DNA of 64,000 nucleotides from an uncultured Gemmatimonadaceae bacterium (GCA_964619835.1 CAZUFP010000010.1:4561-68560), one strand, 5' to 3'. Positions 68 through 26,392 are shown, counted from the first letter of the stretch. Made by a program: numbers and translations. Notes: generated by a model not told the origin, from the sequence alone.

Positions 68-433
68 TTATCGCGAATTTTCGGCGTCGTCCTGCGCCAG
101 GGCGCGTAGTTCGTCGAGGGTTTCCACGGCACGGCGCAGGTGGGGGATGACGATGGAGCCGCCGACGACGAGGCCGACGGAAAAAGTGTCAAAAAGCTGT
201 GCGTCGCCGATCCCTTCCTCGACGCAGCGGGTGAGGTGGTAGGTGATGCAGTCGTCGCAGCGCAGGACGAGGGAAGCGACGAGGCCGAGCAGTTCTTTGG
301 TGGGGGTGTCGAGCGCGCCGTCGTTGTAGGCCTGGGTGTCGAGGGCGAAGAACCGTTTGATGGAAAGGTTGTCGGCCGAGAGGATGCGCTGGTTGAGGCG
401 CTCGCGGAACTCGCGGAACTCCTGCACGCTCAT
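68..433 (-). CDS. Carboxymuconolactone decarboxylase / AhpD-like protein
   Basis: Start moved to MSVQEF (ATG overlaps upstream stop, ATGA). Contains LDTPTKELLGLVASLVLRCDDCITYH, a CMD-family CxxC...H motif. Confidence 0.85.
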   Translation of the reverse strand: MSVQEFREFRERLNQRILSADNLSIKRFFALDTQAYNDGALDTPTKELLGLVASLVLRCDDCITYHLTRCVEEGIGDAQLFDTFSVGLVVGGSIVIPHLRRAVETLDELRALAQDDAENSR

Positions 434-1404
434 GGGCGCTCTCCCTTCAGATCGGCGAGTGCGAGGTCGGCCGCGGGGCCGTCCTTGAGCAGGAAGAGGG
501 TGTAGCCGTCGTCGTCGGCGTCGACCTGGACGACGTCGGCCCACAGTCCGTCCTCGTGCTGGACGGCCGGGCCGCGCGGCAGGTCACAGGCGCGCGCGCC
601 CAGGAGTGAGCGGTAGACGAAGGCGAGTCCGTCGTCGGAGATGACGAGCCAGCCGCTGCGGTAGGCGCCCACGCCTTTCAGGCCGGTGATGCCGACCCGG
701 GCGGTCCGGGGGGGGGCGGCGCCGAGGGGCGTCGGCCCGATGAGTCCGCGCAGGTCCCGGGGCAGGTCATCGACGGGGCGCCAACCCGAAGTGCCGAGCA
801 CGCTGCGCAGGCGGGCGACGAGGGCGCGCATGCCGAGGGTGAAGGCGCGCCAGAAGCGGTGTCCCACCAGCAGGATGACCACGATCGCGCCGCCGGCGCC
901 GGCCAGGGCGTACACCGGCCACAGGAGCGCGGCGGTGGTGAGCAGGATGGCGGCGACGTCCTCGATAACGCTGACGGAGAAGCTCAGCCTGGGCCGCGGG
1001 TCCGTGTGCAGCACGATGCGCAGGCCGGCCTTGGTGGCATGCGTGCCGAGGGCGACGATGGCGCCCAGCACCGCGCCGGCCAACTTGGTCGAGAGGCTGT
1101 AGGGCCAGAGTGCAGCCACGGCCAGCATGGCGGCGGCGGACGGGCGGATGAAGGTGTGAACGGCGTCCCAGAGGGAGTCGGCGTGGCGGACCTTGTCGAC
1201 GATGGCTTCGACGATGTAGAGGGCGAGGGCGCTGGCAATGACCAGCAGGCCTCCGAGGCCGCGCAGGCCGGCGGGCATGCCGGCCACGAGGTCGAACCGG
1301 GCCAGGATGCCGAGCACGATGACGGTCGCGTACAGATTGAGTCCGCACGCGAACGACAGGCCGACGGTCTGGCCGATCAGTGCCAGGGAACCGGCGTCCA
1401 TCAT
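430..1404 (-). CDS. DUF4126 family membrane protein with C-terminal soluble extension
   Basis: GLSFACGLNLYA, EAIVDKVRHADSLWDAVHTFIRP and SVIED motifs; several TM helices. Confidence 0.75.
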   Translation of the reverse strand: MMDAGSLALIGQTVGLSFACGLNLYATVIVLGILARFDLVAGMPAGLRGLGGLLVIASALALYIVEAIVDKVRHADSLWDAVHTFIRPSAAAMLAVAALWPYSLSTKLAGAVLGAIVALGTHATKAGLRIVLHTDPRPRLSFSVSVIEDVAAILLTTAALLWPVYALAGAGGAIVVILLVGHRFWRAFTLGMRALVARLRSVLGTSGWRPVDDLPRDLRGLIGPTPLGAAPPRTARVGITGLKGVGAYRSGWLVISDDGLAFVYRSLLGARACDLPRGPAVQHEDGLWADVVQVDADDDGYTLFLLKDGPAADLALADLKGERP

Positions 1405-1521: not shown

Positions 1522-2805
1522 TCAATCGTTCGTGTGGCGCGTTTCCGGGGCGCGGAATACGAGGCACGCGTTGATCCCGCCGAACCCGAAGGAGTTGGAC
1601 AGGCAGGTCCGGGGCGTGAATGCGCGGCCGGTGCCCGGGACGTAGTCCAGGTCGCAGCCGTCGTCGGGGTCGTCCAGGTTGAGGGTGGGCGGGATCCAGC
1701 CGCGCTGCATGGCGAGGCAGCAGATGGCCGCTTCCACGGCGCCGGACGCGCCCAGCGCGTGGGCGGTGTACGGTTTGGTCCCGCTGACGGGCACCCGGTA
1801 GGCGTGCTCGCCGAGGGCGAGTCGGATGGCCGTCGTCTCGGTGGTGTCGTTGAGGGGGGTGGAGGACCCGTGGGGATTCACGTAATCGATGTCATCGGGC
1901 TGCATGGCGGCCGCTTCGAGGGCGAGCCGGATGGAGCGGGCCGCCTGGCTGCCATCGGGCCGCGGCGCGGTCATGTGGTGGGCGTCGTTGGTGGTGCCGT
2001 AGCCGCACACTTCTCCGTAGATGCGGGCGCCCCGGCGGACGGCGTGCTCCCAGTCTTCCAGCACCAGCACGCACGCCGCCTCGCCCATGACGAAGCCGTC
2101 GCGGCCCCGGTCGAAGGGCCGGCATGCGTGGGCGGGGTCGTCGTTGCGCGTGCTCATGGCCCGGATGATGGAGAACGCGCCGAACGAGAGGGGTGCCAGC
2201 GGCGCCTCCACGCCGCCGGCCACGACGACGTCGCAGCGGCCTTCGCGGATCAGCCGCCAGCCCTCGCCCACGGCGATGGTTCCCGATGCGCACGACATGG
2301 CGTTGGTGGCGTTGGGCCCGGTGAAGCCGAACTCGATGGCGATGGAGCAGGACGCAGCGCCGCCGAAGGTGGTGAGCGCGACTCTCGGGTCTACGGCCCG
2401 GATGCCGTCGCGCATGAGGTTGACCACCTGGGTCTCGGCATAGGCGACGCCGCCGAGGGCGGAGCCGATCTGCACACCCACGCGGTCGCCGTCCAGGGCG
2501 GCGGGTTCGAGGCTGGCGTCCTGGAGGGCGAGGCGCGTGGCGGCGATGGAGAACTGGGCGTAACGGTCCATGCGGCGGCTGGTGCGGCGCTCCATGTACT
2601 GTTCCGGCTCGAAGCCGTCCACTTCGGCGGCCAGCTGGGACCGCCAGAGCTGCGGGTCGAATCGGGTCGCCCGGCGGATGGGCGATCGCTCCCGGCGCAG
2701 GCCCTGCCACAGTTCGTCCACGCCGATGCCTGACGCGGTGATGGGCCCGAGGCCGGTGACGGCGACGCGGTGCGTGGGGTCGTGGCTGTTCGCTCGCGGC
2801 GTCAT
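1522..2805 (-). CDS. Beta-ketoacyl-ACP synthase II-like ketosynthase (FabF/KS family)
   Basis: Start at MTPRAN (ATGA overlap). RVAVTGLG, catalytic Cys in MSCASG, His in HGSSTPLND and TAHALGASG, C-terminal SNSFGFGG. Confidence 0.9.
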   Translation of the reverse strand: MTPRANSHDPTHRVAVTGLGPITASGIGVDELWQGLRRERSPIRRATRFDPQLWRSQLAAEVDGFEPEQYMERRTSRRMDRYAQFSIAATRLALQDASLEPAALDGDRVGVQIGSALGGVAYAETQVVNLMRDGIRAVDPRVALTTFGGAASCSIAIEFGFTGPNATNAMSCASGTIAVGEGWRLIREGRCDVVVAGGVEAPLAPLSFGAFSIIRAMSTRNDDPAHACRPFDRGRDGFVMGEAACVLVLEDWEHAVRRGARIYGEVCGYGTTNDAHHMTAPRPDGSQAARSIRLALEAAAMQPDDIDYVNPHGSSTPLNDTTETTAIRLALGEHAYRVPVSGTKPYTAHALGASGAVEAAICCLAMQRGWIPPTLNLDDPDDGCDLDYVPGTGRAFTPRTCLSNSFGFGGINACLVFRAPETRHTND

Positions 2806-3329
2806 GTGGGGCCCTCCCTGCCTTCGATGGCCGCGGCGTCGCCCGCGTCCGGGTGTCCTTCGGGCTCGTGTTCGCGGCGCTCCGCTTCCGTGCCGACGCC
2901 GGCAAGGGTGCGCTGTGCGATGGCGCTCACGAAGTGCGGTCCGATGACGCGGCTGGCGGCGAACGTGCCTACGAGAGGCCAGGACGGGCCTGCCCATTCG
3001 TGGACGATGCGCACCCGGGTTCCGTCCTGGTGCGGCAGGAACTCCCAGCGTACGTCCATGCCGCGGGTGATGCCGTCCACGTGACGGTAGCGGACGATGG
3101 GCCCGGTATGGTCCGAAGCCATCTCCGAGACCCACCAGGTGGGGTAGCGCAACGGGCCGAAGTGTCGCCATGCGGCCATTTCGACGAGGCCGCGGCCGAA
3201 GCCGTCCTTGCGTTGGAAGCGCACTCGCCGGTAGTGGGGCAGCAGCGCCGGCCAGCGCTCCACGTCGGCGGCCACGAGGAAGCAGGTCCCGGGCCGCGCG
3301 TGTACGACGCGCTCATCGATCCGCAGCAT
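2802..3329 (-). CDS. SRPBCC/START-fold polyketide cyclase/aromatase-like protein
   Basis: ADVERWPALLPHY and WWVSE...VRYRHV...MDVRWEF resemble TcmN/WhiE aromatase-cyclase segments. Confidence 0.75.
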   Translation of the reverse strand: MLRIDERVVHARPGTCFLVAADVERWPALLPHYRRVRFQRKDGFGRGLVEMAAWRHFGPLRYPTWWVSEMASDHTGPIVRYRHVDGITRGMDVRWEFLPHQDGTRVRIVHEWAGPSWPLVGTFAASRVIGPHFVSAIAQRTLAGVGTEAERREHEPEGHPDAGDAAAIEGREGPT

Positions 3330-3353
3330 GGTGCAGCGCCTCCCTCCGAGATG

Positions 3354-4661
3354 TCACGGCATGCCGAGCAGGAACCGGGCGAGCAACCCGGGGGCCAGCA
3401 GCGTGGCGGGCGGCCGTGCATCGCCAGTCACCGCGACGAGCGCGTCCGCGACCCCGGGCGAGCGGGCCAGCCGCCGCACGACGCGGTTCGCGCGCCCCGG
3501 CCGGGCCAGAGCCCATTCAATCACGTGCTGCAGCCTGCGGCCGGGGGCCACAAGCCCGTGGAACCGCCGGCTGTAGAGCTCCAGCCGGCGGGCGGATGTG
3601 TCGCCGGCACGCAGCGCCCCGCCGGCTACATCCGCGAGCAGCTCGGCGGACGCCAACGCCCGGAAGATGCCCTGGCCGGTGAACGGGTCGTAATAACCGG
3701 CCGCGTCCCCCACCAGCGCGGCGCCGTCCGCGATCACTGCGCGGGTCGGCACGTCGAACGGGCCCGATGCCAGGAAGGGGCCGTTCACGCCCGGGGCGTC
3801 CCTTTGCGGTCCCTCACGGGCCGGCCTGTCGGCCTCGAGCCGGTCCCGAAGCGCCGGCATTCGCCGCACCCAGTCCCCGACGAACGCCTCGGGCCCGGCG
3901 TTGCGCAGGGCCGACGCGTGCGGTCCGGTGACCACGAGGGTCAGGTTGACCCGGCGGCCTCCTTCATCGACGGGCGCCAGGCCCACGCAGGCGCCCCGCG
4001 CCAGGTGCATCTCGCCGAGCCATGGCGAACCCTGGGGAAAGAGGCCGGGCGCATCGATGTGCGTGGTCAGGGACACCTTGCGCAGGCGCGGCGCCCGCCG
4101 GACCAGGCCGAGCCGCCGGGCGACGACGGATCGCAGGCCATCGGCGCCCACCACGAGCCGGGCACGCAGCCGGAACGGCCGGCCGTCGGCGTCACGGCCC
4201 ACGACGCCCGTGACGGCGCCATGCCCGCCGCCATCTCGCAGCAGGCCGGTGACGTGTGCGCGGAGATAGCGGGCGCCCGCCGCCTGCGCCGCCTCCCACA
4301 ACGCCGCGTCCAGGCGGCTCCGTTCCAGGGCGAGGGCGGGCCCGGTTTCGTGGAAACGGCCGGTGAAATGCGCGCCACCGGGCGCGTGGATGGTCCAGCC
4401 GTGCAGGCGTGCCGGCCGGGCCGCCTCCACGGCATCCAGCAGGCCGAGCCGTTCCAGCACGCGGGTCGCCTGCGCGCTCAAGCACTCGCCGCACGGCTTG
4501 TCCCTCGGGAACGCGTGGCGATCCACCAGGACCACCCGGAAGCCCTGCTGCGCCAGAAGCCGGGCCGTGACGGAACCGGCGGGCCCCGCACCCACGACGA
4601 CGGCATCCGCCGCGGCTTCGGTCCATGCAACCGGCTCCTGCGCGCTTCCTGGGGCGATCAT
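3354..4661 (-). CDS. NAD(P)/FAD-dependent oxidoreductase (geranylgeranyl reductase / flavin monooxygenase family)
   Basis: Start at MIAPGS after AAGGAAGG. VVVGAGPAGS, FPRDKPCGE, GADG and LVGDAAGYYDPFTGQGI motifs. Confidence 0.85.
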   Translation of the reverse strand: MIAPGSAQEPVAWTEAAADAVVVGAGPAGSVTARLLAQQGFRVVLVDRHAFPRDKPCGECLSAQATRVLERLGLLDAVEAARPARLHGWTIHAPGGAHFTGRFHETGPALALERSRLDAALWEAAQAAGARYLRAHVTGLLRDGGGHGAVTGVVGRDADGRPFRLRARLVVGADGLRSVVARRLGLVRRAPRLRKVSLTTHIDAPGLFPQGSPWLGEMHLARGACVGLAPVDEGGRRVNLTLVVTGPHASALRNAGPEAFVGDWVRRMPALRDRLEADRPAREGPQRDAPGVNGPFLASGPFDVPTRAVIADGAALVGDAAGYYDPFTGQGIFRALASAELLADVAGGALRAGDTSARRLELYSRRFHGLVAPGRRLQHVIEWALARPGRANRVVRRLARSPGVADALVAVTGDARPPATLLAPGLLARFLLGMP

Positions 4662-4749
4662 GCCTTCCTTCCGCTGCCGGGGTCGGCCGGCTCCTCGCGC
4701 TGGTCCGCCGGATGTCGTGTGCGCCGTTCCGGCTGCCGGCGCCCGGCTC

Positions 4750-5445
4750 TCAGGCGGGCCGCGCCGTGAGCACGAGGCGGAACAGCGGGTGGCGTCGCAC
4801 GACGACATCCCGCAGCCCCACCCGTTCCGCCAGCGACCGGAGCTCGTCGGGCCGGAACGCCCGCAACACCGACATGGGCCCGTCGTGCCGGGTGAGCGGA
4901 TCGCGGCGCCAGACAGTCGCCGCCAGCAGCCGGGCCCCGAGGTAGCTCGGCCGGTTCCGGTGCAGCTCGCCCACGAAGAGCCACCTTCGCACGACGCGCG
5001 CCATCTCGGCCAGGACCCGGAGCTGGGCGTCGCCGTCGAAGTGGTGCAGCGTCATGGACAGCATAGCGATGTCGAACGCGGCATCGGCGAACGGGAGACG
5101 CAGGCCGTTCGCCGCCGCCACCTGGATGGCCGGCTCGCCTTCCGTTCGCCGAGCGGCCACGGCGGCGATCTGGGGATGCACGTCCACCGCCGTGATGGTG
5201 ACCGTCCGTCCGCGACGGCGGGCCCAGCGGGCAATCGCCCGCGGCAGGTCGGCCGAGCCGGTGCCGATATCCAGGACCGCCGCACCGTCGGAGAGCCGGC
5301 CCGCCAGGGCGCGGACGAGAGCGTGCCGGCCGCCGAGCCAGCGGTTCACCGCCGCCACGTGGTCCAGGGATCGTTCCAGGGTGGGCCCGTCGTGGCGCGG
5401 CGCGTCCAGGCGCTCGGCAGCGCCTTCCAGGCGCGGCAGCGTCAC
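4750..5445 (-). CDS. Class I SAM-dependent methyltransferase
   Basis: VLDIGTGSAD, LPFADAAFD and TRHDGPMSVLRAF; GTG start overlaps the CDF stop. Confidence 0.85.
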   Translation of the reverse strand: MTLPRLEGAAERLDAPRHDGPTLERSLDHVAAVNRWLGGRHALVRALAGRLSDGAAVLDIGTGSADLPRAIARWARRRGRTVTITAVDVHPQIAAVAARRTEGEPAIQVAAANGLRLPFADAAFDIAMLSMTLHHFDGDAQLRVLAEMARVVRRWLFVGELHRNRPSYLGARLLAATVWRRDPLTRHDGPMSVLRAFRPDELRSLAERVGLRDVVVRRHPLFRLVLTARPA

Positions 5446-6311
5446 CGCTCGCCCAGCGGCTCCACGTGGACCACCACCTCCCGCGCCTGGAGCTCCCGCG
5501 ACACACGCTGCTCGACCGCGTCGGCGATCACGTGGGCCTCGCTCACCCCCAGCGTGGGCTCCACCGCGATGGTGAGCTCGGCGAACATCTCGCCGCGCCG
5601 CCCCCGGGAACGCACGTCGTACACGGCCTTCACGCCCGGTGTGGCCTGGGCCAGGCGCTGGATCTTCGACGGGTCCACCGCCACTTCGTCCACCAGCACG
5701 GGCACCGTCGAGCGGATGATGCGCCAGCTGGCGCGAGCGATCACGGCCGCCACCAGCAGGGTGAAGATTGCGTCGGCGCGCGGGTAGCCTGCGGTCACGA
5801 ACAACAGGCCGACGATCACCGCCAGCGACGCATAGATGTCCGACTGGGTGTGGGCCGCGTCGGCGGTCAGGATGTCGCTCGACAGCTCCCGGCCCTTCTT
5901 CCGTTCGTAGTAGGACACGAAGAAGCTCACGATGGCCGAGCCGCCCATGACGGCGAACACCACCACGGTGACGTGCGGCCGTGCCTCACCCGCGATCAGG
6001 CGGTGGATGGCGCTGCTGGTCAGCTCGTAGATCGTGATGGACAGGAACATCACCACGGCGAGGCCGCCCAGCGTCTCGAACTTGGCGTGGCCGTATGGGT
6101 GGTTCTCGTCCGGCGCGCGGGCGGCCACCCGGGACAGCACCAGCCCGATGACGTTGTTCAGCGCGTCCACGGAGGAATGGGCCGACTCGGCCACCACGCT
6201 CAGGGTGCCGGTCATGAAGCCCGCGGCGGCCTTGGCGGCCACCACCGCGATGTTGGCGAGCAGCGTCAGCACCAGCACGCGCCGGATCTCTTCGTGGCGG
6301 TTGCGGCTCAT
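5442..6311 (-). CDS. Cation diffusion facilitator (FieF-like) transporter
   Basis: ESAHSSVD, PDENHPYGHAKFE and ADAAHTQSD motifs; C-terminal HVEP. Confidence 0.9.
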   Translation of the reverse strand: MSRNRHEEIRRVLVLTLLANIAVVAAKAAAGFMTGTLSVVAESAHSSVDALNNVIGLVLSRVAARAPDENHPYGHAKFETLGGLAVVMFLSITIYELTSSAIHRLIAGEARPHVTVVVFAVMGGSAIVSFFVSYYERKKGRELSSDILTADAAHTQSDIYASLAVIVGLLFVTAGYPRADAIFTLLVAAVIARASWRIIRSTVPVLVDEVAVDPSKIQRLAQATPGVKAVYDVRSRGRRGEMFAELTIAVEPTLGVSEAHVIADAVEQRVSRELQAREVVVHVEPLGER

Positions 6312-7735
6312 GGTCTGGCTCCGCCTTCCAGGGCCTCTCCTGCGGTGCCGCCGGACTGTTGCGCCGCGGCGCCTCCAGACTTCGACACCGCCGCGCGTGC
6401 CCCGGCGATCCGGAGGCCGGCGTCCTCGATGCGGGGTCGCAGCGTTTCGACGTCCAGCGTGGTGAACACGCCGTCACGGAACAGCGTGCGCCCCTGCACC
6501 ATGGTGAGCGTCACGTCCTCGCCGCGCGCGGCGTGGAACAGCGTGGTTGCCGGGTCCGCCGCCGGCAGGGTGTGCGGACCGTCCAGGCGCACCGCGCACA
6601 GGTCCGCATCCTTGCCCGGCTCGATGGAGCCGATGCGTTCGTCGAGGCCCAGAGCACGCGCACCGTCCAGCGTCGCCATGTGAAGCAGCGTCGATGCCGG
6701 CAGGGCGTCCGGCGAACGCAAGCGCGCCCGCTGCTGGATCTGCGCCACGCGGGCTTCTTCCAGCAGATCCAGCCGGTTGTTGGCCGCCACCGAGTCGGTA
6801 CCGAGGCCCACGACGATGCCCGCTTCCAGCAGTTCCGCAACCGGAGCGGTGCCATGGCCGAGCCGGGCGTTGGCGACGGGACAGTGGGCCACCGGGCAGC
6901 CGTGGCGGGCAATGCGCGCCACGTCCTCGTCGTCGAGCTGAACGGCGTGGATGAGCAAGGGCCGGGCCTCGAGCACGCCCAGGCGCTCCAGCAAGGCGAT
7001 GGTGGACGGCGCGCGTCGGGGCGTGGCGATGCCGCGGGCGCGCAGTGCGTCGGCGAACGGGCCGGCGCCGTCGCGCACCAGCTCCGTTTCCGCGAAGGAC
7101 TCGGCCGCGTGGGTCGCCAGTGGCAAACCTTCGTCCTGGGCGAAGCGGACCGCCCGCTGGTACAGGGCGTTGGACACCGAGTAGGGCGCGTGCGGCGAGA
7201 CGCCGACCCGCACCAGCGGCGTCTCGTGCTCCCGCATGGCGGCGACCCGGGCGCGCAGCCCGGCCATGGCGGCATCGGCCTGTTCGGGGGCGGGGCCGAA
7301 GACCTCCCGGAACACGACGCCGCGCATGCCCGCATCCCGCATCGCGTCCAACGCGGCGCCGGAATCCTCGGTAGCCGCCAGGGTCGTGACGCCGGTGCGC
7401 AGGGATTCGACGCACGTCCAGCGGGCGGCGGCGTCGTAATCCGCGGAGGCGAGACCAGCGTCCGCCTTGAGCCCCAGCAGGGCCGGGATCCAGCGGTGGA
7501 ACGGCAGGTCCTCGAGGACGCCGCGGAACGCCGCCAGCTCGGGGTGAGCGTGGACGTTGACGAGGCCCGGCATCAGCACCGCCTCACCCAGCGCGACGGT
7601 GGGCCCATCGGACGGGAAGCGGGACGCAGGCCCTACCGCTTCGATGCGGCCGTCGTCGGACACGAGCACACCACCACCCGGGATCGGGGGCGCCGTGACC
7701 GGCAGAACCCAGCGGGCAGTGTACAGGGTGGCCAT
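6308..7735 (-). CDS. Amidohydrolase, MTA/SAH deaminase (MtaD)-like
   Basis: PGLVNVHAH, PHAPYS, THAAES, HCPVAN, LGTDS and GSIEPGKDAD. Confidence 0.85.
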   Translation of the reverse strand: MATLYTARWVLPVTAPPIPGGGVLVSDDGRIEAVGPASRFPSDGPTVALGEAVLMPGLVNVHAHPELAAFRGVLEDLPFHRWIPALLGLKADAGLASADYDAAARWTCVESLRTGVTTLAATEDSGAALDAMRDAGMRGVVFREVFGPAPEQADAAMAGLRARVAAMREHETPLVRVGVSPHAPYSVSNALYQRAVRFAQDEGLPLATHAAESFAETELVRDGAGPFADALRARGIATPRRAPSTIALLERLGVLEARPLLIHAVQLDDEDVARIARHGCPVAHCPVANARLGHGTAPVAELLEAGIVVGLGTDSVAANNRLDLLEEARVAQIQQRARLRSPDALPASTLLHMATLDGARALGLDERIGSIEPGKDADLCAVRLDGPHTLPAADPATTLFHAARGEDVTLTMVQGRTLFRDGVFTTLDVETLRPRIEDAGLRIAGARAAVSKSGGAAAQQSGGTAGEALEGGARP

Positions 7736-19333: not shown

Positions 19334-21400
19334 TCAGAACCGCACCCGCAGCCCCAGCTCCGCCGTCCGGCCCCGGGCGGGGAAGCCGGCGATCTCCTGG
19401 TAGCGGGCATCCAGCAGGTTGTGGACGCGCAGGACGGCGGTGGCGTGCTGGCCCAGGGCGTCGAACGCGTAGTCTCCGGACAGCTCGACGGTGGTGACGG
19501 GCGCCAGCGTGATGCGGGGCGACGGGTACGTGGGTGCCGCGAAGTCGACGTCGTCGCGGGCGCCGGTGTGGCGCAGGCCGAGGCGGACAGTGAATTCGGG
19601 CGCGGCGGCCCAGCGGACCCGGGCGTCGGCGGTGACGGGTGCACGCCGCAGCAGAGGCATGCCCTGGACGAAGGTGGAGTCGGTGGCGAGGCCCTGGTCG
19701 GTGACACGGGTGCGGAGCAGAGTGACCTGGCCTTCCACGCCGACCGCGCGGCCGAGGTCCGCGTGGCCGCTCAGCTCCACGCCGCGCGCGTTGGCGCCGC
19801 CGACGTTGTAGTAGTTGGGCGCACCGGGCGTGGGCGTGGTGAACGTATACTGGACCAGGTCCGTGAAGTGCTGGTCGAAATACGTTGCGGAGATGCTCAG
19901 GCGGCCGGCCAGCAAGGTCTGTCGCAGGCCGCCTTCCCACGTGTGGGTGTGCTCGGGGCCCAGACCCGGGTTGCCGACATCGCCATAACCGCTGCCGTAG
20001 CTCTCGGCGAAGCTGGGCTCCCGGAACGCGGTCCCGAACGCGGCGCGCAGGCGGGTCGAAGCCGTGAGGGCGTAGCTGGCCCCCAGGCGGTACGTGCCGA
20101 ATACGCCGAAGGCGTCGTTGTCCTCCCGGCGCACGCCGAGCTGCGCGTCCAGATGGGGGGCCGGCTTGGCCACGAGCTGGGCGTACAGGGCGCGGGTGGT
20201 GCGCTGCTCATCGACGGCGCCAGTGATGGGGCCGTACTGCGAGACGTACCGGCTGTTGCCGCTCACGGCGTCCCGCTCCAGCATGGCGCCGAAGGTGAGC
20301 ACGTCACCGGCGTGCGACAGGAACAGGTTCAGGCGCCCGTCGACACTGCGCCGGCTCTGGCGTTGGTGGCCGTCGCCCGCGTACGTGCCCAGCGTGTCGG
20401 CGGCGTTGTCCTGCCGGTCCTGGAAGGTACGACGTATCTCGTTGTCGGTGGCAAGGATGCGAGCCTGGGCCCGGCCGCCGAAGTCGTGGCCGGCGTCGAC
20501 GGAGAGGGCGAACATGCGCCCGTCCTGGACGGCGTTGGTGTCCACGATGTTGCCCGCGCCGTCGGTGGGGTAGTGGTACACGGCGTCGTGGTACCGCACG
20601 TTCGCGGCGATGTCGGAACGGCCCCGGGCCAGGGCCAGCCGGGCGGACACCGCGCGGTTCAGGTAGCCGTTGTTCAGGGGCAGCAGGCCGTCGCTCCGGT
20701 ACCGGGAGATGCCGAAGGAGTAGCCGAGTGCCGCATCGCCGCCGGACAGGCCCGCTTCGAGGTCCAGCGTCGGGTAACTCCCGGCCGCGTCCCGGCGCGC
20801 GCCCAGGCCGGGCAGCGCGGACGCCGTCGCTTCCGGGCGGCCGTGGCCCCGGCGGGTGAAGATCTGGATGACGCCGCTCACCGCGTCCGAGCCGTACAGG
20901 ACGCTGGCGGGTCCCCGCACCACCTCGATGCGCTCGACGTTGGTGAGGTCGAGGTCGGCCAGGTCGATGGCGCCGCCCGGGTCGTTCAGGGGCACGCCGT
21001 CCACCAGCACCTTCACGTAGTCGCTCTCGCCGCCTCGCAGGAACAGCGACGTCTGGGCGCCGTCGGGCCCGGCGCTGGCGATCTCGACGCCTGGCACGTC
21101 CCGCAGCGCTTCCGCCACGGAGCGCACGCCGCGGGCACGCAGGCTGTCGCCCATGAGCACCGTGACGGGCACCGGCAGCGCATCGAGGCGGAGGGGCAGG
21201 CGGGTGGCGGTGACGACGATCTCCGGCAGCTCGAACGTGTCGGGTGGCGTTCCCGCGGTGTCGGGCGTCTGCGCGGCGGCGATCGCGGGCAGAAACGTGG
21301 CGGCCAGCACGACGGCGGCCGCCGAGGCCGCGCGTCGCGCCGCGGGCGTCCGGCGCGAGCGTCGGCGGGCCGGTGTGCCGGCGACGTTCTTCCTTCTCAT
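19334..21400 (-). CDS. TonB-dependent receptor, BtuB-like (cobalamin)
   Basis: EIVVTATR, LFLRGG, VLVDGVPLND, ERIEVVRGPASVLYGSDAVSGVIQIFT and HNLLDARY; lies in the B12 riboswitch operon. Confidence 0.88.
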   Translation of the reverse strand: MRRKNVAGTPARRRSRRTPAARRAASAAAVVLAATFLPAIAAAQTPDTAGTPPDTFELPEIVVTATRLPLRLDALPVPVTVLMGDSLRARGVRSVAEALRDVPGVEIASAGPDGAQTSLFLRGGESDYVKVLVDGVPLNDPGGAIDLADLDLTNVERIEVVRGPASVLYGSDAVSGVIQIFTRRGHGRPEATASALPGLGARRDAAGSYPTLDLEAGLSGGDAALGYSFGISRYRSDGLLPLNNGYLNRAVSARLALARGRSDIAANVRYHDAVYHYPTDGAGNIVDTNAVQDGRMFALSVDAGHDFGGRAQARILATDNEIRRTFQDRQDNAADTLGTYAGDGHQRQSRRSVDGRLNLFLSHAGDVLTFGAMLERDAVSGNSRYVSQYGPITGAVDEQRTTRALYAQLVAKPAPHLDAQLGVRREDNDAFGVFGTYRLGASYALTASTRLRAAFGTAFREPSFAESYGSGYGDVGNPGLGPEHTHTWEGGLRQTLLAGRLSISATYFDQHFTDLVQYTFTTPTPGAPNYYNVGGANARGVELSGHADLGRAVGVEGQVTLLRTRVTDQGLATDSTFVQGMPLLRRAPVTADARVRWAAAPEFTVRLGLRHTGARDDVDFAAPTYPSPRITLAPVTTVELSGDYAFDALGQHATAVLRVHNLLDARYQEIAGFPARGRTAELGLRVRF

Positions 21401-22239
21401 GTCCCTTCCCTTCCCTCGGTATCGGGAACGTCGTCCCCGGCCAGGGGCACCACCTGGGGCGCGCCCCTGTCCCGGCCGGGGCCGGCGTGTGGCTGGATGG
21501 CGACGGGCCAGCGGTAGACCCGGCGCACGTTGAATTCAGTGAGCACGTCGCCCGGCGTTCCTTCGGCGGCGGGGCGTCCCCGGTGCAGCAGGAGGAGGCG
21601 GGGTGCGTAGCGGGCCGCCAGGTTCAGGTGGTGCGTGACCAGCAGGACGGTGACGCCATCGTCGTCGGCGAGGCGGCGGAGGCGCTCGAAGATCTCCATC
21701 TCGTGGCGGATGTCGAGGGCGGCGGACGGCTCGTCCAGCACGAGCGTGTCCGGCCGCTGGGCCAGGGCGCGGGCCAGGCGCGCCCGCTGACGTTCGCCGC
21801 CGGACAGGGAGTCCACCGGCCGGTCGGCCATGTCCAGGACGTTGCACCGGGCCATGGCTTCGTCCACGGCTTCCCGGTCGGCGTGCCCGGCGCTCCGCCA
21901 CGGCCCCAAGTGCGGATAGCGGCCCATGGCGACCAGCTCCCGCACGCTCAGGGGGAACGCCAGCTCCTCTACCTGGGGCACGACCCCGACGTGGCGCGCC
22001 AGCTCGCGGCGGGGCCAGTCGGCCACCGGGCGGCCGTCGTAGCCGACCCCGCCCGCGTCGGGGCGCAGCACGCCCAGCAGCAGGCGCAGCAGCGTCGACT
22101 TGCCGGAGCCGTTGGGCCCGATGACGGCGTAGAGTGCGCCGCGCGGCACGGCCAGGTCCACGCCGTCCAGCGCCGGACGCTCGGCGCCCGGGTAGCGGTA
22201 CGACAGGCCGGCGGTCCGGAACACGACGTCGTCCGTCAC
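21397..22239 (-). CDS. Cobalamin/iron-siderophore ABC transporter ATPase (BtuD/FepC-like)
   Basis: [21 protein letters not shown] and H-loop. Confidence 0.9.
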   Translation of the reverse strand: MTDDVVFRTAGLSYRYPGAERPALDGVDLAVPRGALYAVIGPNGSGKSTLLRLLLGVLRPDAGGVGYDGRPVADWPRRELARHVGVVPQVEELAFPLSVRELVAMGRYPHLGPWRSAGHADREAVDEAMARCNVLDMADRPVDSLSGGERQRARLARALAQRPDTLVLDEPSAALDIRHEMEIFERLRRLADDDGVTVLLVTHHLNLAARYAPRLLLLHRGRPAAEGTPGDVLTEFNVRRVYRWPVAIQPHAGPGRDRGAPQVVPLAGDDVPDTEGREGT

Positions 22240-23243
22240 GCTCGCCTCCGGGTGAGCAGCACGACGAACACGGGCACGCCCACCAGCGCCGTGACGACGC
22301 CCACCGGCAGCTCGACGGGCGCGGCGACGGTGCGGGCAAGCGTGTCGGCCAGGAGCAGGAACGCGCCGCCGGCCAGCACCGATGCGGGCAGCAGGAAGCG
22401 GTGCTCGCTGCCCCAGACCAGGCGCAGGGCGTGGGGCACGATGAGGCCCACGAATCCGATGACGCCGGAGAACGCCACGCTGGCCGCCACCAGCAGCGAC
22501 GCCACGATGTAGGCCACGCGCTTCACCGACTCCACCCGCGTGCCCAGGTACGCCGCCGTCTCCTCGCCGATGGCGATGAGGTTGAGAGGCCGGGCGAGGG
22601 CGAGGAGCACGAGGATGGCCGGGGCCAGGTACAGGGCGAGCAGGCCGACGGACGTCCAGCTGGCGTCGGCCAGACTGCCCATCATCCAGAACACGGCGGA
22701 CCGGAACGTCTGCACGTCCGCCAGCGTGAGCAGCAGCAGGATGAGGGCGTTGAAGAAGGCGCCCACGACGACGCCGGCCAGGAGCAGGACGCGGGTGTCC
22801 AGGGCGTGGCCGGCGGCGATGGCGATGCGGAAGACCAGGGCGATGGCCAGGGCCGCGCCGCCGAACGCGGCCACCGGCGTGCCCCAGCCCAGGCCGGTGG
22901 CGAGGCCCAGGACGACGGCGCCCACGGCGCCCACGGCCGCGCCGCCGGACACGCCCAGGATGTAGGGATCGGCCAGCGGGTTGCGCAGCAGGGCCTGGAA
23001 CACGGCGCCGCTCAGGGCCAGGCCGCCGCCGACGAGAACGGCCAGGACGGCGCGGGGCAGCCGCAGGTCCAGGACGATGGTGCGGGCCGTCTCGCCGCCG
23101 CCGCCTGTGAACGCGCGAAGCACCATGGCGGGCGTGAGGTCCGCGGCGCCCACAGCGATGCTGAGCACGCCCGTGGCCAGCAGCAGGACGGCCAGCAGAC
23201 CCAGGCGCATGGGCACCGGCAGCTCGGCGAGACGGCGAATCAC
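22236..23243 (-). CDS. FecCD/BtuC-family ABC permease
   Basis: GTG start overlaps upstream stop. LRLPR, LLRNPLADPYILGVSGGA, IGFVGLIVPH and ELPVGVVTALVG. Confidence 0.9.
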   Translation of the reverse strand: MIRRLAELPVPMRLGLLAVLLLATGVLSIAVGAADLTPAMVLRAFTGGGGETARTIVLDLRLPRAVLAVLVGGGLALSGAVFQALLRNPLADPYILGVSGGAAVGAVGAVVLGLATGLGWGTPVAAFGGAALAIALVFRIAIAAGHALDTRVLLLAGVVVGAFFNALILLLLTLADVQTFRSAVFWMMGSLADASWTSVGLLALYLAPAILVLLALARPLNLIAIGEETAAYLGTRVESVKRVAYIVASLLVAASVAFSGVIGFVGLIVPHALRLVWGSEHRFLLPASVLAGGAFLLLADTLARTVAAPVELPVGVVTALVGVPVFVVLLTRRRA

Positions 23244-24151
23244 GGGCGCCCTCCGTGCAGCAGGCCGGCCAGGTCCCGGGCGATCTCGACCATGTGGGGG
23301 CCGGGCCGGTTGTACCGGTACGCGTCCACCTGGTACAAGCGCCCGCCGCGTACGGCGCGCAGACTGCTCCAGCCCGCGGTGCGGCGCAGGTGGGCGAGCA
23401 GGTCCGGCCGCTCCGGCGCCTGGGCGATGACGACCACGTCGGGGTCCCGGCGGACGATGTCCTCCAGGCTCAGCTGGGGCCACAGCACGCCGGTGTCTTC
23501 GAGGACGTTGCGTCCGCCCGCCACGTGCAGCAGCTCATCCACGAACGTTCCCGGCCCCGCGCCCATGGGCGGGTCCAGCCCGATCAGGTAGAGCACGTCC
23601 GGCACCGGCTCGCCGGCCACCGACTCCCGCACCGAGTCCAGCCCGGTGCGGAGGGCGCGTACCAGCGAGTCGGCGGCGGCGCTCCGGCCCAGCAACACGC
23701 CCAGGTCCTTCGCCACGGACAACGCGTCTTCGATGGTCTGGCTGGGCGCCGTGTAGACGGGGATGCCCAACTCTCCCAGCCGCTCCACCAGCGAGCGGGA
23801 GCGCGTGTCCGGCCAGCCGATGACCAGGTCCGGACGACGCTGCGCGATCCATTCCAGGCTCGGCGTCAGCCCGCCGCCCACCGACGGCAGGTCCGCCAGC
23901 CGGGGATCCTGGTCGTAGTCCGTACGCGCCACGAGCCGGTCCGCGGCGCCCAGGGCCACGACCAGCTCGTTCACCGATGGAATCAGGGAGATCACCCGCT
24001 TCGCCGGCGCCGCCAGGCTCACGCGTCGGCCCGCGCCATCCACCACCGTCAGGGGAGAGTCGGCCGCACCGCTCGCAGACGTTTCTCTCTCGCACGCCCC
24101 GTGGGTGAGTGCCGTGATCAGCAGCAGAGAGATGGCAGCGATGCGCCGCAA
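23240..24151 (-). CDS. Cobalamin ABC substrate-binding protein (BtuF-like)
   Basis: Signal/lipobox-like HGAC, KRVISLIPS, PSLEWI..RRPDL and NRPGP. TTG start is estimated. Confidence 0.82.
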   Translation of the reverse strand: MRRIAAISLLLITALTHGACERETSASGAADSPLTVVDGAGRRVSLAAPAKRVISLIPSVNELVVALGAADRLVARTDYDQDPRLADLPSVGGGLTPSLEWIAQRRPDLVIGWPDTRSRSLVERLGELGIPVYTAPSQTIEDALSVAKDLGVLLGRSAAADSLVRALRTGLDSVRESVAGEPVPDVLYLIGLDPPMGAGPGTFVDELLHVAGGRNVLEDTGVLWPQLSLEDIVRRDPDVVVIAQAPERPDLLAHLRRTAGWSSLRAVRGGRLYQVDAYRYNRPGPHMVEIARDLAGLLHGGRP

Positions 24152-24248
24152 AAAGGCCCGTCCTTCCCCTGGCCGGGGAAAGCAACGGGCTTGACCGCCA
24201 GCTGCGTTCGCGCTCCCCGACCCTTCCCGCGAAGGGTGATCATCGGGC

Positions 24249-24412
24249 GCGAACGGAACCCGTCTCCTGGCTTCGAGGCAGCGCCGCTCGCCTTCCCGGG
24301 ATTCCTCCCAGTGGCTCATTGAGCGCGCCACACCGCCGCCCTCGGGCGACGGGCCTCTTACAGTGGCGGGGCCGCGCCGGCATTGCACCGGTCTTCCGGA
24401 GGCCCCGTTCGC
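24249..24412 (-). ncRNA. Cobalamin (B12) riboswitch
   Basis: Minus strand reads GGAAGACCGGTGCAATGCCGGCGCGGCCCCGCCACTGTAA ... GCCACTGGGAGGAATCCCGGGAAGG ... AAGCCAGGAGAC. It is closed by P1 gcgaacgg/ccgttcgc and lies upstream of the btu-like operon. Confidence 0.92.
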
Positions 24413-24534
24413 GTATGTCGAGTTTGAAAGCTAGACGCGAGCGCGTCGGACGGCAACCGGGCCGGCCGCCATGCGCGCCATCTCAGGCAGCGGAGCCCCC
24501 CATGGTGGGCGCCGGGGGAAAGATTCAGGGGCGT

Positions 24535-25909: not shown

Positions 25910-26392
25910 ATGGGTCTGGACAGCTCTGAATTCCGCCGGATCATGGGCCATCTGGTCACGGGAGTCACGGTCGTCACGGCGACGGACCCGGAGAATGGCC
26001 AGCCGTGCGGCCTGACGGCGAACGCGGTCACGTCGGTGTCGTTGGACCCTGCGCTTGTGCTGGCCTGTGTGGAACGTGGCGCGGACACGCATGACTGCAT
26101 CGAGCGGGCGGGCGCGTTCGCCATCAACGTACTGCGTGAGCAGGACGAGCGCGTGTCCCGCCGGTTCGCCGCCTGGGAAGTGGACGCCAAGTTCCAGGGC
26201 GTGGCGTTCCATGCGGAAGTGACCGGCGCGCCGGTTCTCGATGACGCCCTGGCCTGGGTGGACTGCAAGGTGTACGCGGCGTACGACGGCGGCGACCACA
26301 CCATCTACGTAGGCGCCGTGCAGTCGGGCGACGCGGGGATGGGATCGCCGCTGCTCTATTATCGGGGCGGCTACGGGCGGTTCGTGCCATGA
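25910..26392 (+). CDS. Flavin reductase family protein
   Basis: FRRIMGHLVTGVTVVT, SVSLDPALV, GGDHTIYVG and PLLYYRG. Confidence 0.9.
   Translation: MGLDSSEFRRIMGHLVTGVTVVTATDPENGQPCGLTANAVTSVSLDPALVLACVERGADTHDCIERAGAFAINVLREQDERVSRRFAAWEVDAKFQGVAFHAEVTGAPVLDDALAWVDCKVYAAYDGGDHTIYVGAVQSGDAGMGSPLLYYRGGYGRFVP

Follow-up and report, generated by a model that had tools for sequence, protein, structure and literature searches.

A candidate phenolic-lipid operon with a FabF-like ketosynthase and an SRPBCC protein in the usual place of a type III polyketide synthase

In phenolic lipid systems of the srsABC and ftp type, a type III polyketide synthase (PKS) builds the core, which is subsequently hydroxylated or oxidized and methylated. 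A different solution is found in the dialkylresorcinol system DarABC, in which the FabH-like ketosynthase DarB couples two chains head to head, and its partner DarA is not an SRPBCC protein. The srsABC operon of Streptomyces griseus and the ftp genes of Myxococcus xanthus have been cited as alkylresorcinol-to-alkylquinone systems (PMC10896814). In the hierridin operon hidABC, HidC, like the type III PKSs of planctomycetes, has been experimentally shown to make alkylresorcinols, and HidA methylates 5-pentadecylresorcinol (PMC10896814, PMC6836626). Here we describe a locus from an uncultured Gemmatimonadaceae bacterium, for which the best explanation, with a probability of about one half, is a hid/srs-type phenolic-lipid (alkylresorcinol) operon whose type III PKS was replaced by a FabF-derived ketosynthase (KS) together with an aromatase/cyclase-like SRPBCC protein.

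The window, which is the whole stretch of 64,000 nucleotides that was analyzed, carries at positions 1522-5445 four co-oriented genes on the minus strand, encoding a methyltransferase, an FAD oxidoreductase, an SRPBCC protein, and a KS. A preliminary description of this DNA had reported these co-oriented genes with their short gaps and ATGA overlap, and their coordinates were confirmed. The features, including the downstream neighbor, are as follows:

4750..5445, minus strand: SAM-dependent methyltransferase, HidA-like tailoring enzyme (GTG start, 231 aa; Pfam Methyltransf_25/11; NCBIfam NF004851)
3354..4661, minus strand: FAD-dependent oxidoreductase, probable ring hydroxylase, HidB-like (435 aa; FAD_binding_3)
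2802..3329, minus strand: SRPBCC (Bet v1/START fold) protein, proposed cyclase (175 aa; Pfam Polyketide_cyc)
1522..2808, minus strand: FabF-like beta-ketoacyl synthase, KS (428 aa; ketoacyl-synt N and C domains)
430..1404, minus strand: DUF4126 membrane protein, lineage-specific downstream neighbor (Pfam DUF4126)

The ATGA overlap joins the SRPBCC and KS genes, while 24 nt separate the FAD gene from the SRPBCC gene and 88 nt the methyltransferase gene from the FAD gene. The reading frame of the FAD gene is open as far as 4808, and the start chosen is an ATG preceded by the ribosome-binding-like stretch GGAAGGAAGG, which gives 435 aa, the length of its relatives being 415-441 aa. Coding-strand GC3 of the four genes is 0.85-0.92, and a 638-aa ORF on the opposite strand was discarded as a high-GC artefact. 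The quartet is part of a longer co-directional gene string, in which a cation-efflux gene ends within the start of the methyltransferase gene (GTGA overlap), an amidohydrolase gene and an Omp85-like gene lie farther upstream, and the DUF4126 gene lies downstream. This last gene, which may be co-transcribed with the quartet, follows the KS gene in the window and in loci L001, L002, and L100, and is absent from L099 and from the loci of other phyla. As had been remarked before, the window lacks an acyl carrier protein (ACP) and a chain-length factor (CLF); within its 64 kb neither these nor a second KS, a type III PKS, a FabH-like gene, or a second KS-like ORF was found.

According to a scan of a genome collection, the SRPBCC family is present in at least 589 species genomes from at least eight phyla, its carriers belonging to Armatimonadota, Vulcanimicrobiota, Chloroflexota, Bacteroidota, Verrucomicrobiota, Actinomycetota (Rubrobacter), Binatus, and Gemmatimonadota. 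Gene clustering was analyzed in 84 loci including the window (87 with L097, L099, and L100 added). The SRPBCC-KS pair is the conserved core of the module: a KS gene lies downstream of the SRPBCC gene on the same strand in 79 of the 84 loci, and the distance from the SRPBCC stop to the first aligned KS codon has a median of 6 nt and is at most 150 nt in 76 of 77 loci. The methyltransferase gene (59/84) and the FAD gene (57/84) are present in about 70% of the loci. In Gemmatimonadota, the quartet moves as a unit between differing genomic contexts, and the linkage across phyla bears out the co-conservation on which the earlier proposal depended. Two Chloroflexota loci, L044 and L083, hold FAD-SRPBCC genes with no KS nearby, and domain fusions of FAD enzyme with SRPBCC and of methyltransferase with SRPBCC were each observed once. 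Moreover, the oxygenase slot is filled by a P450 in Chthonomonas, and a flavin reductase adjoins the FAD gene in nine Gemmatimonadales loci, which points to hydroxylation as the reaction of this slot.

A linked ACP or CLF, which the preliminary description had proposed to look for, was not found at these loci. No dedicated ACP was detected in the 84 loci (phmmer with the E. coli ACP at E up to 10 and with two PKS-type ACPs at E up to 1; tblastn), nor acpP in L097, L099, and L100 (tblastn with E. coli acpP), and each locus of the 84-locus set has a single KS gene. The lack of a linked ACP in all 87 loci fits the borrowing of the fatty-acid ACP. No type III PKS was found within about 9 kb in the 84 loci, where tblastn with three type III PKS queries was applied to the 83 loci related to the window.

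The methyltransferase of the window has only one strong NCBIfam match, NF004851 (PRK06202), with 132 bits against an equivalog cut-off of 243. Likewise, the type III PKS-linked methyltransferases of Paludisphaera, Sphingobium indicum, and Methylobacterium match NF004851 only and stay under this cut-off (143-232 bits). The protein is 33-35% identical to methyltransferases of methyltransferase-FAD-type III PKS operons, and all eight plasmid relatives examined lie in such clusters, which are of the alkylresorcinol operon type known from hidABC and planctomycetes. Both the family matches and these contexts agree with the earlier remark that a methyltransferase and a flavoprotein often accompany type III PKS alkylresorcinol or alkylquinone clusters.

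The FAD enzyme belongs to the geranylgeranyl-reductase/halogenase-like superfamily, scoring 132 bits on TIGR02032 (cut-off 158.8) and 102 bits on QhpG. With the FAD enzyme of the Paludisphaera operon it shares 33% identity over 373 aa, an FPRxKxCG motif, and the same ranking of NCBIfam matches, and this Paludisphaera protein is the best plasmid relative of a module FAD enzyme. Neither the WxWxIP halogenase motif nor the YxWxFP reductase motif is present in the sequence of the window enzyme, which is probably a HidB-like ring hydroxylase. The gene order in Paludisphaera, methyltransferase-FAD-synthase, is identical. Because relatives of the methyltransferase and kin of the FAD enzyme reside in type III PKS operons, the SRPBCC-KS pair, judging from the sequences of its neighbors, occupies the place where a type III PKS normally sits, as a putative non-orthologous displacement.

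The KS resembles FabF (KAS II, TIGR03150) in its 42-46% identity and in its catalytic residues, which include the intact Cys-His-His triad noted previously (Cys173, His313, and His350), Lys345, and the FGFGG gate. However, it scores 499.8 bits on TIGR03150 (cut-off 493.75), about 150 bits below real FabFs; ten module KSs reached 446-541 bits, five of them under the cut-off, whereas four housekeeping FabFs reached 642-677 bits. The KS is 48-71% identical to other module KSs, and the mean identity between module KSs and FabFs is 43.5%, compared with 50-59% between FabFs of different phyla (71% for two Bacillota FabFs). In the tree, the module KSs group together in 100 of 100 bootstraps and stay separate from FabFs drawn from four phyla; the clade does not follow the species tree, its genes always occur linked to an SRPBCC gene, and five substitutions (G108A, I109L, I139F, A163S, and T306S) are fixed in it with the catalytic set intact. 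Unlike FabF, the module KS is never part of a fab operon, and plsX, fabH, fabD, and acpP are all absent from the 87 loci and the window. As far as sequence can tell, the module KSs are a paralogue group distinct from housekeeping FabF, and they probably use malonyl-ACP like FabF; the grouping with housekeeping FabF that would have spoken against the earlier proposal was not seen.

The AF2 model of the SRPBCC protein has a pLDDT of 89.9, and its top Foldseek matches are WhiE ORFVI, TTHA0849, TcmN, and ZhuI, with E values of 1e-10 to 1e-9 and TM scores of 0.63-0.87 for TcmN-type aromatase/cyclases. The family profile also matches aromatase/cyclases (E from 9e-14 to 5e-6), such as BexL (9e-14), WhiE (2e-11), and TcmN (2e-9). 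A RatA/CoQ10-type identity was considered and rejected, because the RatA-like 1t17 ranks behind all aromatase/cyclases in both comparisons (Foldseek rank 47; profile 6.5e-5). The RatA/CoQ10 START proteins share the superfamily (Pfam PF03364) but differ in gene context and in this profile value, compared with 1e-9 to 1e-14 for aromatase/cyclases, and the label "RatA toxin" given to the SRPBCC gene in public annotation is probably wrong. By profile and modeled fold, the protein appears aromatase/cyclase-like, as previously supposed, and far closer to these enzymes than to RatA/CoQ10-like proteins.

The SRPBCC family has two conserved motifs, WPxxLPHYR and HxxGxTxGMxVxW, and equivalents of the TcmN pocket residues W28, Y35, W65, S67, M91, and W95 are conserved. 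The segments WWVSE and MDVRWEF, which had been said to recall TcmN/WhiE, align to the pocket segments W65-x-S67 and M91...W95. The equivalent of Tyr35 is Y33, whereas Arg69, which is catalytic and essential in TcmN, corresponds to Met70 in the window and to Gln in the family consensus, and the position of Arg82 holds an invariant His. Thus, the fold, best matches, and pocket equivalents are those of TcmN, WhiE ORFVI, ZhuI, and BexL, while the two arginines differ and the identity is about 20%. The invariant polar residues are many (H32, Y33, R34, H83, and T88), a pattern that suits an enzyme better than a lipid carrier.

For the substrates, the number of extensions, the cyclization, and the product, we infer the following course. 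The KS, presumably a homodimer, would accept a fatty acyl group from the cell's housekeeping ACP and add a few malonyl-ACP units with no reduction. Then, by folding, dehydration, and aromatization, the SRPBCC protein might turn the poly-beta-keto end, bound to the ACP, into a ring of the resorcinol type, which the FAD enzyme would hydroxylate and the SAM-dependent methyltransferase would methylate, giving a hierridin-like methoxy-alkylphenol or an alkylquinone in the membrane. On the sequence evidence, the most likely product is a resorcinol-type lipid that is assembled on the housekeeping ACP before its hydroxylation and methylation. The aromatic lipid from KS, cyclase, hydroxylation, and methylation that was predicted earlier is consistent with the gene families, the linkage, and the modeled fold. 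Against the replacement of the type III PKS speak the changes at Arg69 and Arg82, the lack of a CLF or dedicated ACP at the loci, the position of the KS at the fabF cut-off, the KS-free loci L044 and L083, and the fact that the fusions are singletons; moreover, iteration without reduction by a homodimer of the FabF type has no known precedent.

The missing Arg69 could also be taken to mean that the pair only prepares or carries a special acyl chain, the KS elongating a starter and the SRPBCC protein acting as a CoQ10-like lipid-binding chaperone, while ring formation falls to a type III PKS encoded elsewhere or the product is not aromatic. In this respect, sphingomonad plasmids hold ACP-KS-type III PKS-methyltransferase-FAD operons, which provide an example of a KS working for a type III PKS; the SRPBCC fold also matches lipid-binding Bet v1/START proteins (E ~1e-7), and the methyltransferase and FAD-domain fusions would suit a substrate-presenting domain. 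However, the KS of these plasmids shares only 36% identity with that of the window and falls outside the module clade, no type III PKS was found within about 9 kb in the 84 loci, the profile prefers aromatase/cyclases over RatA-like proteins by 6-9 orders of magnitude, the pocket has invariant His, Tyr, and Arg, and each fusion was seen once. We regard this explanation as unlikely, though it is the strongest of the alternatives.

A fatty-acid cassette is still less probable. Here, the SRPBCC protein and KS would yield an unsaturated chain in the manner of FabA/FabB, and the methyltransferase with a reductase-type FAD enzyme would convert it into a mid-chain methyl-branched fatty acid, which would suit a FabF-like KS with no dedicated ACP linked, an FAD enzyme of the geranylgeranyl-reductase superfamily, and the carriers Thermomicrobiales and Rubrobacter, known for mid-chain methyl fatty acids. 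Nevertheless, the methyltransferase is of the PRK06202 family found with type III PKS genes (relatives in such operons in 8/8 cases) and not of the cyclopropane/mycolic-acid synthase type, the YxWxFP reductase motif is absent, and a P450 can take the FAD slot; fatty acids of this kind are not known from Ignavibacteria and Gemmatimonadota, in which the methyltransferase and FAD genes occur. The score of the KS just over the TIGR03150 cut-off and its best PDB matches, which are FabFs, might suggest that it is no more than the organism's housekeeping FabF beside unrelated genes. This is highly improbable given the 100% bootstrap clade cutting across the species tree, the deficit of about 150 bits on the fabF model, the absence of acpP/fab genes beside it, and its tight coupling with SRPBCC, seen in at least eight phyla but only in a subset of species.

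If the type III PKS was indeed replaced, the module might represent, as a tentative suggestion with slightly less than even odds, a third bacterial route to resorcinol-type lipids beside those through type III PKS and DarAB. Such a "type II-like" synthase would consist of two proteins and have neither CLF nor own ACP; a FabF-derived KS would iterate on the housekeeping ACP, and the SRPBCC protein would close and aromatize the ring. The module would be either ancient or widely exchanged among at least eight phyla of soil and sediment, most of them uncultured. A single FabF-clade KS with a cyclase on the ACP of primary metabolism would be a new minimal polyketide architecture, and alkylresorcinol or alkylquinone lipids would be products of many uncultured lineages (Gemmatimonadota, Armatimonadota, Vulcanimicrobiota (Eremiobacterota), Thermomicrobiales, and Chthoniobacterales). 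Genome-mining tools are known to target type III PKS genes, KS-CLF pairs, or DarAB and probably overlook the cassette, and the widespread misannotation of the SRPBCC gene as "RatA toxin" and of the KS gene as "FabF" would be corrected. Phenolic lipids affect membrane properties and antibiotic tolerance and, in mycobacteria, low-oxygen respiration, so that having them would matter for the physiology of these abundant soil bacteria.

In the literature searched, no description of an SRPBCC-KS pair in place of a type III PKS was found. Type II PKS systems differ from the module by their KS-CLF heterodimer and dedicated ACP. With DarABC the module would share a resorcinol lipid derived from fatty-acid chains and made by a KS and an aromatizing partner without a type III PKS, and to this extent the likeness to DarAB seen in the preliminary description stands; however, DarB is FabH-like and joins chains head to head, DarA is no SRPBCC protein, no sequence relation was seen, and the closest analogue is hidABC/srsABC. 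The srsABC and ftp systems have the same sequence of core formation, hydroxylation or oxidation, and methylation, and are compared with the module by this logic, while their core enzyme is a type III PKS. The tailoring enzymes are only about 30-35% identical to those of the picocyanobacterial hidABC (hierridin) and Planctomycetota operons, which nevertheless have the same PRK06202-type methyltransferase and geranylgeranyl-reductase-like FAD oxidoreductase (PMC6836626, PMC10896814), the same order of methyltransferase, FAD enzyme, and synthase, and overlapping genes; where these operons carry the type III PKS HidC, the present locus carries the SRPBCC protein and the FabF-like KS.

The G+C content of the window is about 70%, and the protein search returned relatives of its proteins carrying Gemmatimonadota and Longimicrobiales names. 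The four genes of the cassette were located as follows:

4750-5445, minus strand, class I methyltransferase, 231 aa
3354-4661, minus strand, FAD oxidoreductase, 435 aa
2802-3329, minus strand, SRPBCC protein (polyketide-cyclase-like Bet v1/START fold), 175 aa
1522-2808, minus strand, FabF-like ketosynthase (KS), 428 aa

The SRPBCC and KS genes are joined by an ATGA overlap, and the remaining two gaps in the set are 24 and 88 nt. The KS retains Cys173, His313, His350 and Lys345 as well as the FGFGG gate, and the search of the whole 64-kb window found no ACP, second KS or type III polyketide synthase (PKS), which confirms the co-oriented four-gene set, with intact KS residues and without these partners, that had been read from the sequence in the preliminary description. 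The stop of a cation-efflux gene overlaps the methyltransferase start, with an amidohydrolase gene and an Omp85-like gene further upstream, while a DUF4126 membrane protein is encoded 3' of the KS; the remaining window genes have ordinary housekeeping and transport functions. The CDF cation-efflux and amidohydrolase genes (5442-7735, minus strand), whose stops and starts overlap, are also inserted between the Omp85-like gene and the methyltransferase in the related locus L097, and not in loci L001, L002 and L100. The DUF4126 gene (430-1404, minus strand) lies 3' of the KS in window-type Gemmatimonadota loci, with a gap of 117 nt in the window and a 4-nt overlap in L002, and is not present in L099 or other phyla. 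As well, a cobalamin riboswitch (RF00174, 59.7 bits; 24240-24422, minus strand) precedes genes for a periplasmic binding protein, a FecCD permease and a TonB-dependent receptor (19334-24200, minus strand), and this set is therefore probably a B12 uptake operon.

Gemmatimonadota contigs other than the window carry the quartet in the identical order, both in surroundings shared with the window (PEPCK, malic enzyme, Omp85 ... DUF4126, sigma factor) and in quite different ones, so the four genes move as a set. The SRPBCC family is small and specific, with 472 representatives at 50% identity among 1.8 billion proteins searched, at least 7,990 clusters at 90% identity, and members in at least 589 species (motif scan, one genome per species) of Armatimonadota, Vulcanimicrobiota/Eremiobacterota, Chloroflexota, Bacteroidota (Ignavibacteria, Chitinophagaceae), Verrucomicrobiota, Rubrobacter, Binatus and Gemmatimonadota. 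A plasmid search with the SRPBCC protein gave zero matches. The KS gene is present in 79 of 84 loci (window included), and the distance from the SRPBCC stop to the first aligned KS codon has a median of 6 nt and is at most 150 nt in 76 of 77 loci; the methyltransferase (59/84) and the FAD gene (57/84) are counted as lower bounds, because contig ends cut many loci. The gene orders observed were:

methyltransferase-FAD-SRPBCC-KS: window type, Chloroflexota, Vulcanimicrobiota, Rubrobacter
methyltransferase-SRPBCC-KS-FAD: Bacteroidota
FAD-flavin reductase-methyltransferase-SRPBCC-KS: other Gemmatimonadales
SRPBCC-KS with or without methyltransferase: Armatimonadota
SRPBCC-KS only: Verrucomicrobiota

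The SRPBCC-KS pair is thus the core, and the methyltransferase and FAD genes are frequent accessories. An exception is the FAD-SRPBCC arrangement of two Chloroflexota loci from Herpetosiphonaceae and Chloroflexales (L044 7766-10157; L083 2953-5347), where KS is absent within 2.6 kb; in both loci an N-acetylmuramoyl-L-alanine amidase gene comes after the two genes. Ten Verrucomicrobiota loci of Chthoniobacterales type (L076 8032-8775 and nine others), without methyltransferase and FAD genes, possess a RibD_C-like reductase gene directly upstream of SRPBCC, ending 4 nt 5' of the SRPBCC start in L041 and L052. Moreover, SRPBCC is predicted to be fused with an FAD enzyme (P0254, on a 2.18-Mb NCBI contig), a methyltransferase (P0131, on a 3.6-kb contig) and a P450 fragment (P0184, on a 987-nt contig); since every fusion is a singleton they are weak as evidence, and P0131 and P0184, both from short contigs, may have arisen through faulty assembly or gene calling.

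The clearest pointer comes from the methyltransferase and FAD genes, the tailoring part of the cassette. The methyltransferase has one strong family match, NF004851/PRK06202 (132 bits; runner-up 42 bits), and each of the eight plasmid contexts examined for its relatives was a cluster of type III PKS, methyltransferase and FAD genes; these contexts came from Sphingobium indicum, Paludisphaera, Methylobacterium, Paracoccus, Novosphingobium, S. yanoikuyae, Falsirhodobacter and Paenibacillus. The three methyltransferases scanned (Paludisphaera, S. indicum and Methylobacterium) match NF004851 alone. A plasmid search with the window FAD protein gave almost no matches owing to low-complexity masking, and a lower-GC FAD enzyme from another such locus was used instead, for which the Paludisphaera FAD enzyme was by far the best match. 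In Paludisphaera the operon runs methyltransferase-FAD-type III PKS, and the FAD enzyme encoded there shares 33% identity with that of the window over 373 aa, with the FPRxKxCG motif common to both. According to previous studies, Cyanobium hidABC directs the synthesis of hierridins, with HidC as alkylresorcinol synthase and recombinant HidA active as a methyltransferase on 5-pentadecylresorcinol (PMC6836626). The same three-gene operon occurs in 58 planctomycete strains, whose PKSs produced pentadecyl- and heptadecyl-type resorcinols in a Corynebacterium glutamicum strain enriched in malonyl-CoA (PMC10896814).

The FAD enzyme falls in sequence between geranylgeranyl reductases, halogenase-like enzymes and QhpG-like monooxygenases, and the signature motifs of reductases and halogenases, for which it was checked, are both missing. 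A halogenase function was rejected because of the missing WxWxIP motif, although the top PDB matches are halogenases. The FAD gene is absent from Armatimonadota cassettes, where a cytochrome P450 takes its place in the Chthonomonas locus, a B12-binding radical SAM gene in four loci and a U32-family gene in one. Such substitutes lie at:

L049 9491-10855, cytochrome P450
L005 7571-8989, B12-binding radical SAM protein
L019 6573-7799, Peptidase_U32 family protein

The last of these, a single case, suggests an O2-independent hydroxylase. Furthermore, a flavin reductase adjoins the FAD gene in nine Gemmatimonadales loci, and a ferredoxin is encoded upstream in eight Vulcanimicrobiota loci. The P450 substitution and the adjoining reductase and ferredoxin genes, together with the analogy to HidB, make ring hydroxylation the most likely role of the FAD enzyme. 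The window also contains a flavin-reductase-like ORF (25910-26392, plus strand), 20 kb from the cassette and 38% identical to the reductase between FAD and methyltransferase in the nine Gemmatimonadales loci; its stop overlaps the start of an ORF with an SDR-like C-terminal part.

The best solved relatives of the window KS are housekeeping FabFs (400 bits), above the actinorhodin KS (317 bits). Its score against the NCBI fabF model, 499.8 bits, is barely over the cut-off of 493.75, and ten KSs from cassettes of other phyla scored 446-541 bits, compared with 642-677 for the FabFs of E. coli, Synechocystis, Bacillus and Thermus. The mean identity among cassette KSs across phyla is 52%, versus 43.5% between these and FabFs; FabFs of different phyla are 50-59% identical to each other, and two Bacillota FabFs (Bacillus, Listeria) 71%. 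In neighbour-joining trees, 62 cassette KSs including that of the window formed one clade in 100/100 bootstraps, apart from housekeeping FabF, which answers, as regards FabF, the phylogenetic question raised in the preliminary description. The clade joins Terrabacteria with FCB and PVC phyla, a set that does not form a group in the species tree, and it persisted after the addition of two further KSs, one of Iga11 type and one from a Streptomyces plasmid. Five FabF-invariant positions carry another residue in 90% or more of the clade (G108A, I109L, I139F, A163S and T306S, E. coli precursor numbering), four of them in 98-100%, and plsX, fabH, fabD and acpP were found in none of 87 loci. From the separate clade, the lower fabF scores, the fixed substitutions and the loci without fab genes, we conclude that the cassette KS is probably a specialised FabF-derived paralogue. 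The Streptomyces plasmid locus (L089 3114-7995) is a hydrolase-FAD-ACP-KS-CLF-like cluster, whose FAD enzyme is a distant relative of that in the cassette and whose KS is closest to Iga11 (6kxd) of a highly reducing type II PKS.

The SRPBCC gene is publicly labelled 'SRPBCC family protein' or 'RatA toxin', and 'RatA toxin of the RatAB toxin-antitoxin module' is the JGI annotation of many family members (P0002-P0502) and the NCBI annotation of some. In a single-sequence search, the window protein matched WhiE ORFVI and TcmN at E of about 1e-3 and a RatA-like protein at 0.03, while a profile built from 23 diverse family members matched BexL (9e-14), WhiE (2e-11), TcmN (2e-9), ZhuI (5e-6), TTHA0849 (1e-5) and the RatA-like 1t17 (6.5e-5). 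The best fold matches of its AlphaFold model (pLDDT 89.9) were WhiE, TTHA0849, TcmN and ZhuI (E 1e-10 to 1e-9), followed by Bet v1 and PYL proteins at about 1e-7, with 1t17 at rank 47. The TcmN pocket residues W28, Y35, W65, S67, M91 and W95 are kept as W26, Y33, W66, S68, M91 and W95; however, TcmN Arg69 is replaced by Met70 in the window and by Gln in the family, and Arg82 by an invariant His. The aromatase likeness proposed earlier, as against CoQ10/RatA proteins, thus stands in profile and fold, but the catalytic set is altered. These comparisons place the family with polyketide aromatase/cyclases, not RatA, and the invariant polar motifs particular to it (WPxxLPHYR, HxxGxTxGMxVxW) argue for an enzyme rather than a passive lipid carrier.

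Since ACP is linked at no locus, the KS would draw on the housekeeping ACP and might add a few unreduced malonyl units to a fatty acyl chain, whose end the SRPBCC protein would cyclise and aromatise; the translational coupling of the two genes suggests that their products may form a complex. The FAD enzyme and methyltransferase could then complete a hierridin-like methoxy-alkylphenol or alkylquinone. To this pathway, whose chemistry we infer from the observed genes, we assign a probability of about 0.5. The main rival, in which the part of KS and SRPBCC is limited to preparing or carrying an acyl chain, with the PKS itself encoded elsewhere, is rather unlikely. It gains some support from operons of ACP, KS, type III PKS, methyltransferase and FAD genes on sphingomonad plasmids (L093 300-2823 and L094 803-5122), hid-like but with their own ACP and KS, yet that KS is unrelated to the cassette clade. 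This KS was rejected as a relative, being 36% identical to the window KS and outside the clade in a later tree (no bootstrap).

A fatty-acid modification pathway fits the data poorly and seems improbable; mid-chain methyl fatty acid and BioC/biotin ideas were given a low rank, since the family of the methyltransferase goes with type III PKS operons. The poorest candidate is a plain housekeeping FabF, a label that the NCBI fabF model would give to the cassette KS; it, too, agrees badly with the data and is very improbable. There is a fair chance that SRPBCC and KS, as preferred here, represent a genuinely new minimal PKS architecture. The full-text literature searched gave no description of the cassette or the SRPBCC-KS pairing, and the hidABC and planctomycete alkylresorcinol papers make no mention of the pair (PMC6836626, PMC10896814).

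Between the type III PKS-linked and the cassette tailoring enzymes, mean identities are 23-30%, overlapping the range within the cassette (minimum 21-23%), and none of the loci searched for a type III PKS has both this enzyme and SRPBCC+KS. SRPBCC and KS occupy the type III PKS position in the window operon, which we rate as a probable version of the phenolic-lipid operon already known, in which two non-orthologous proteins serve as the synthase in place of the type III PKS.
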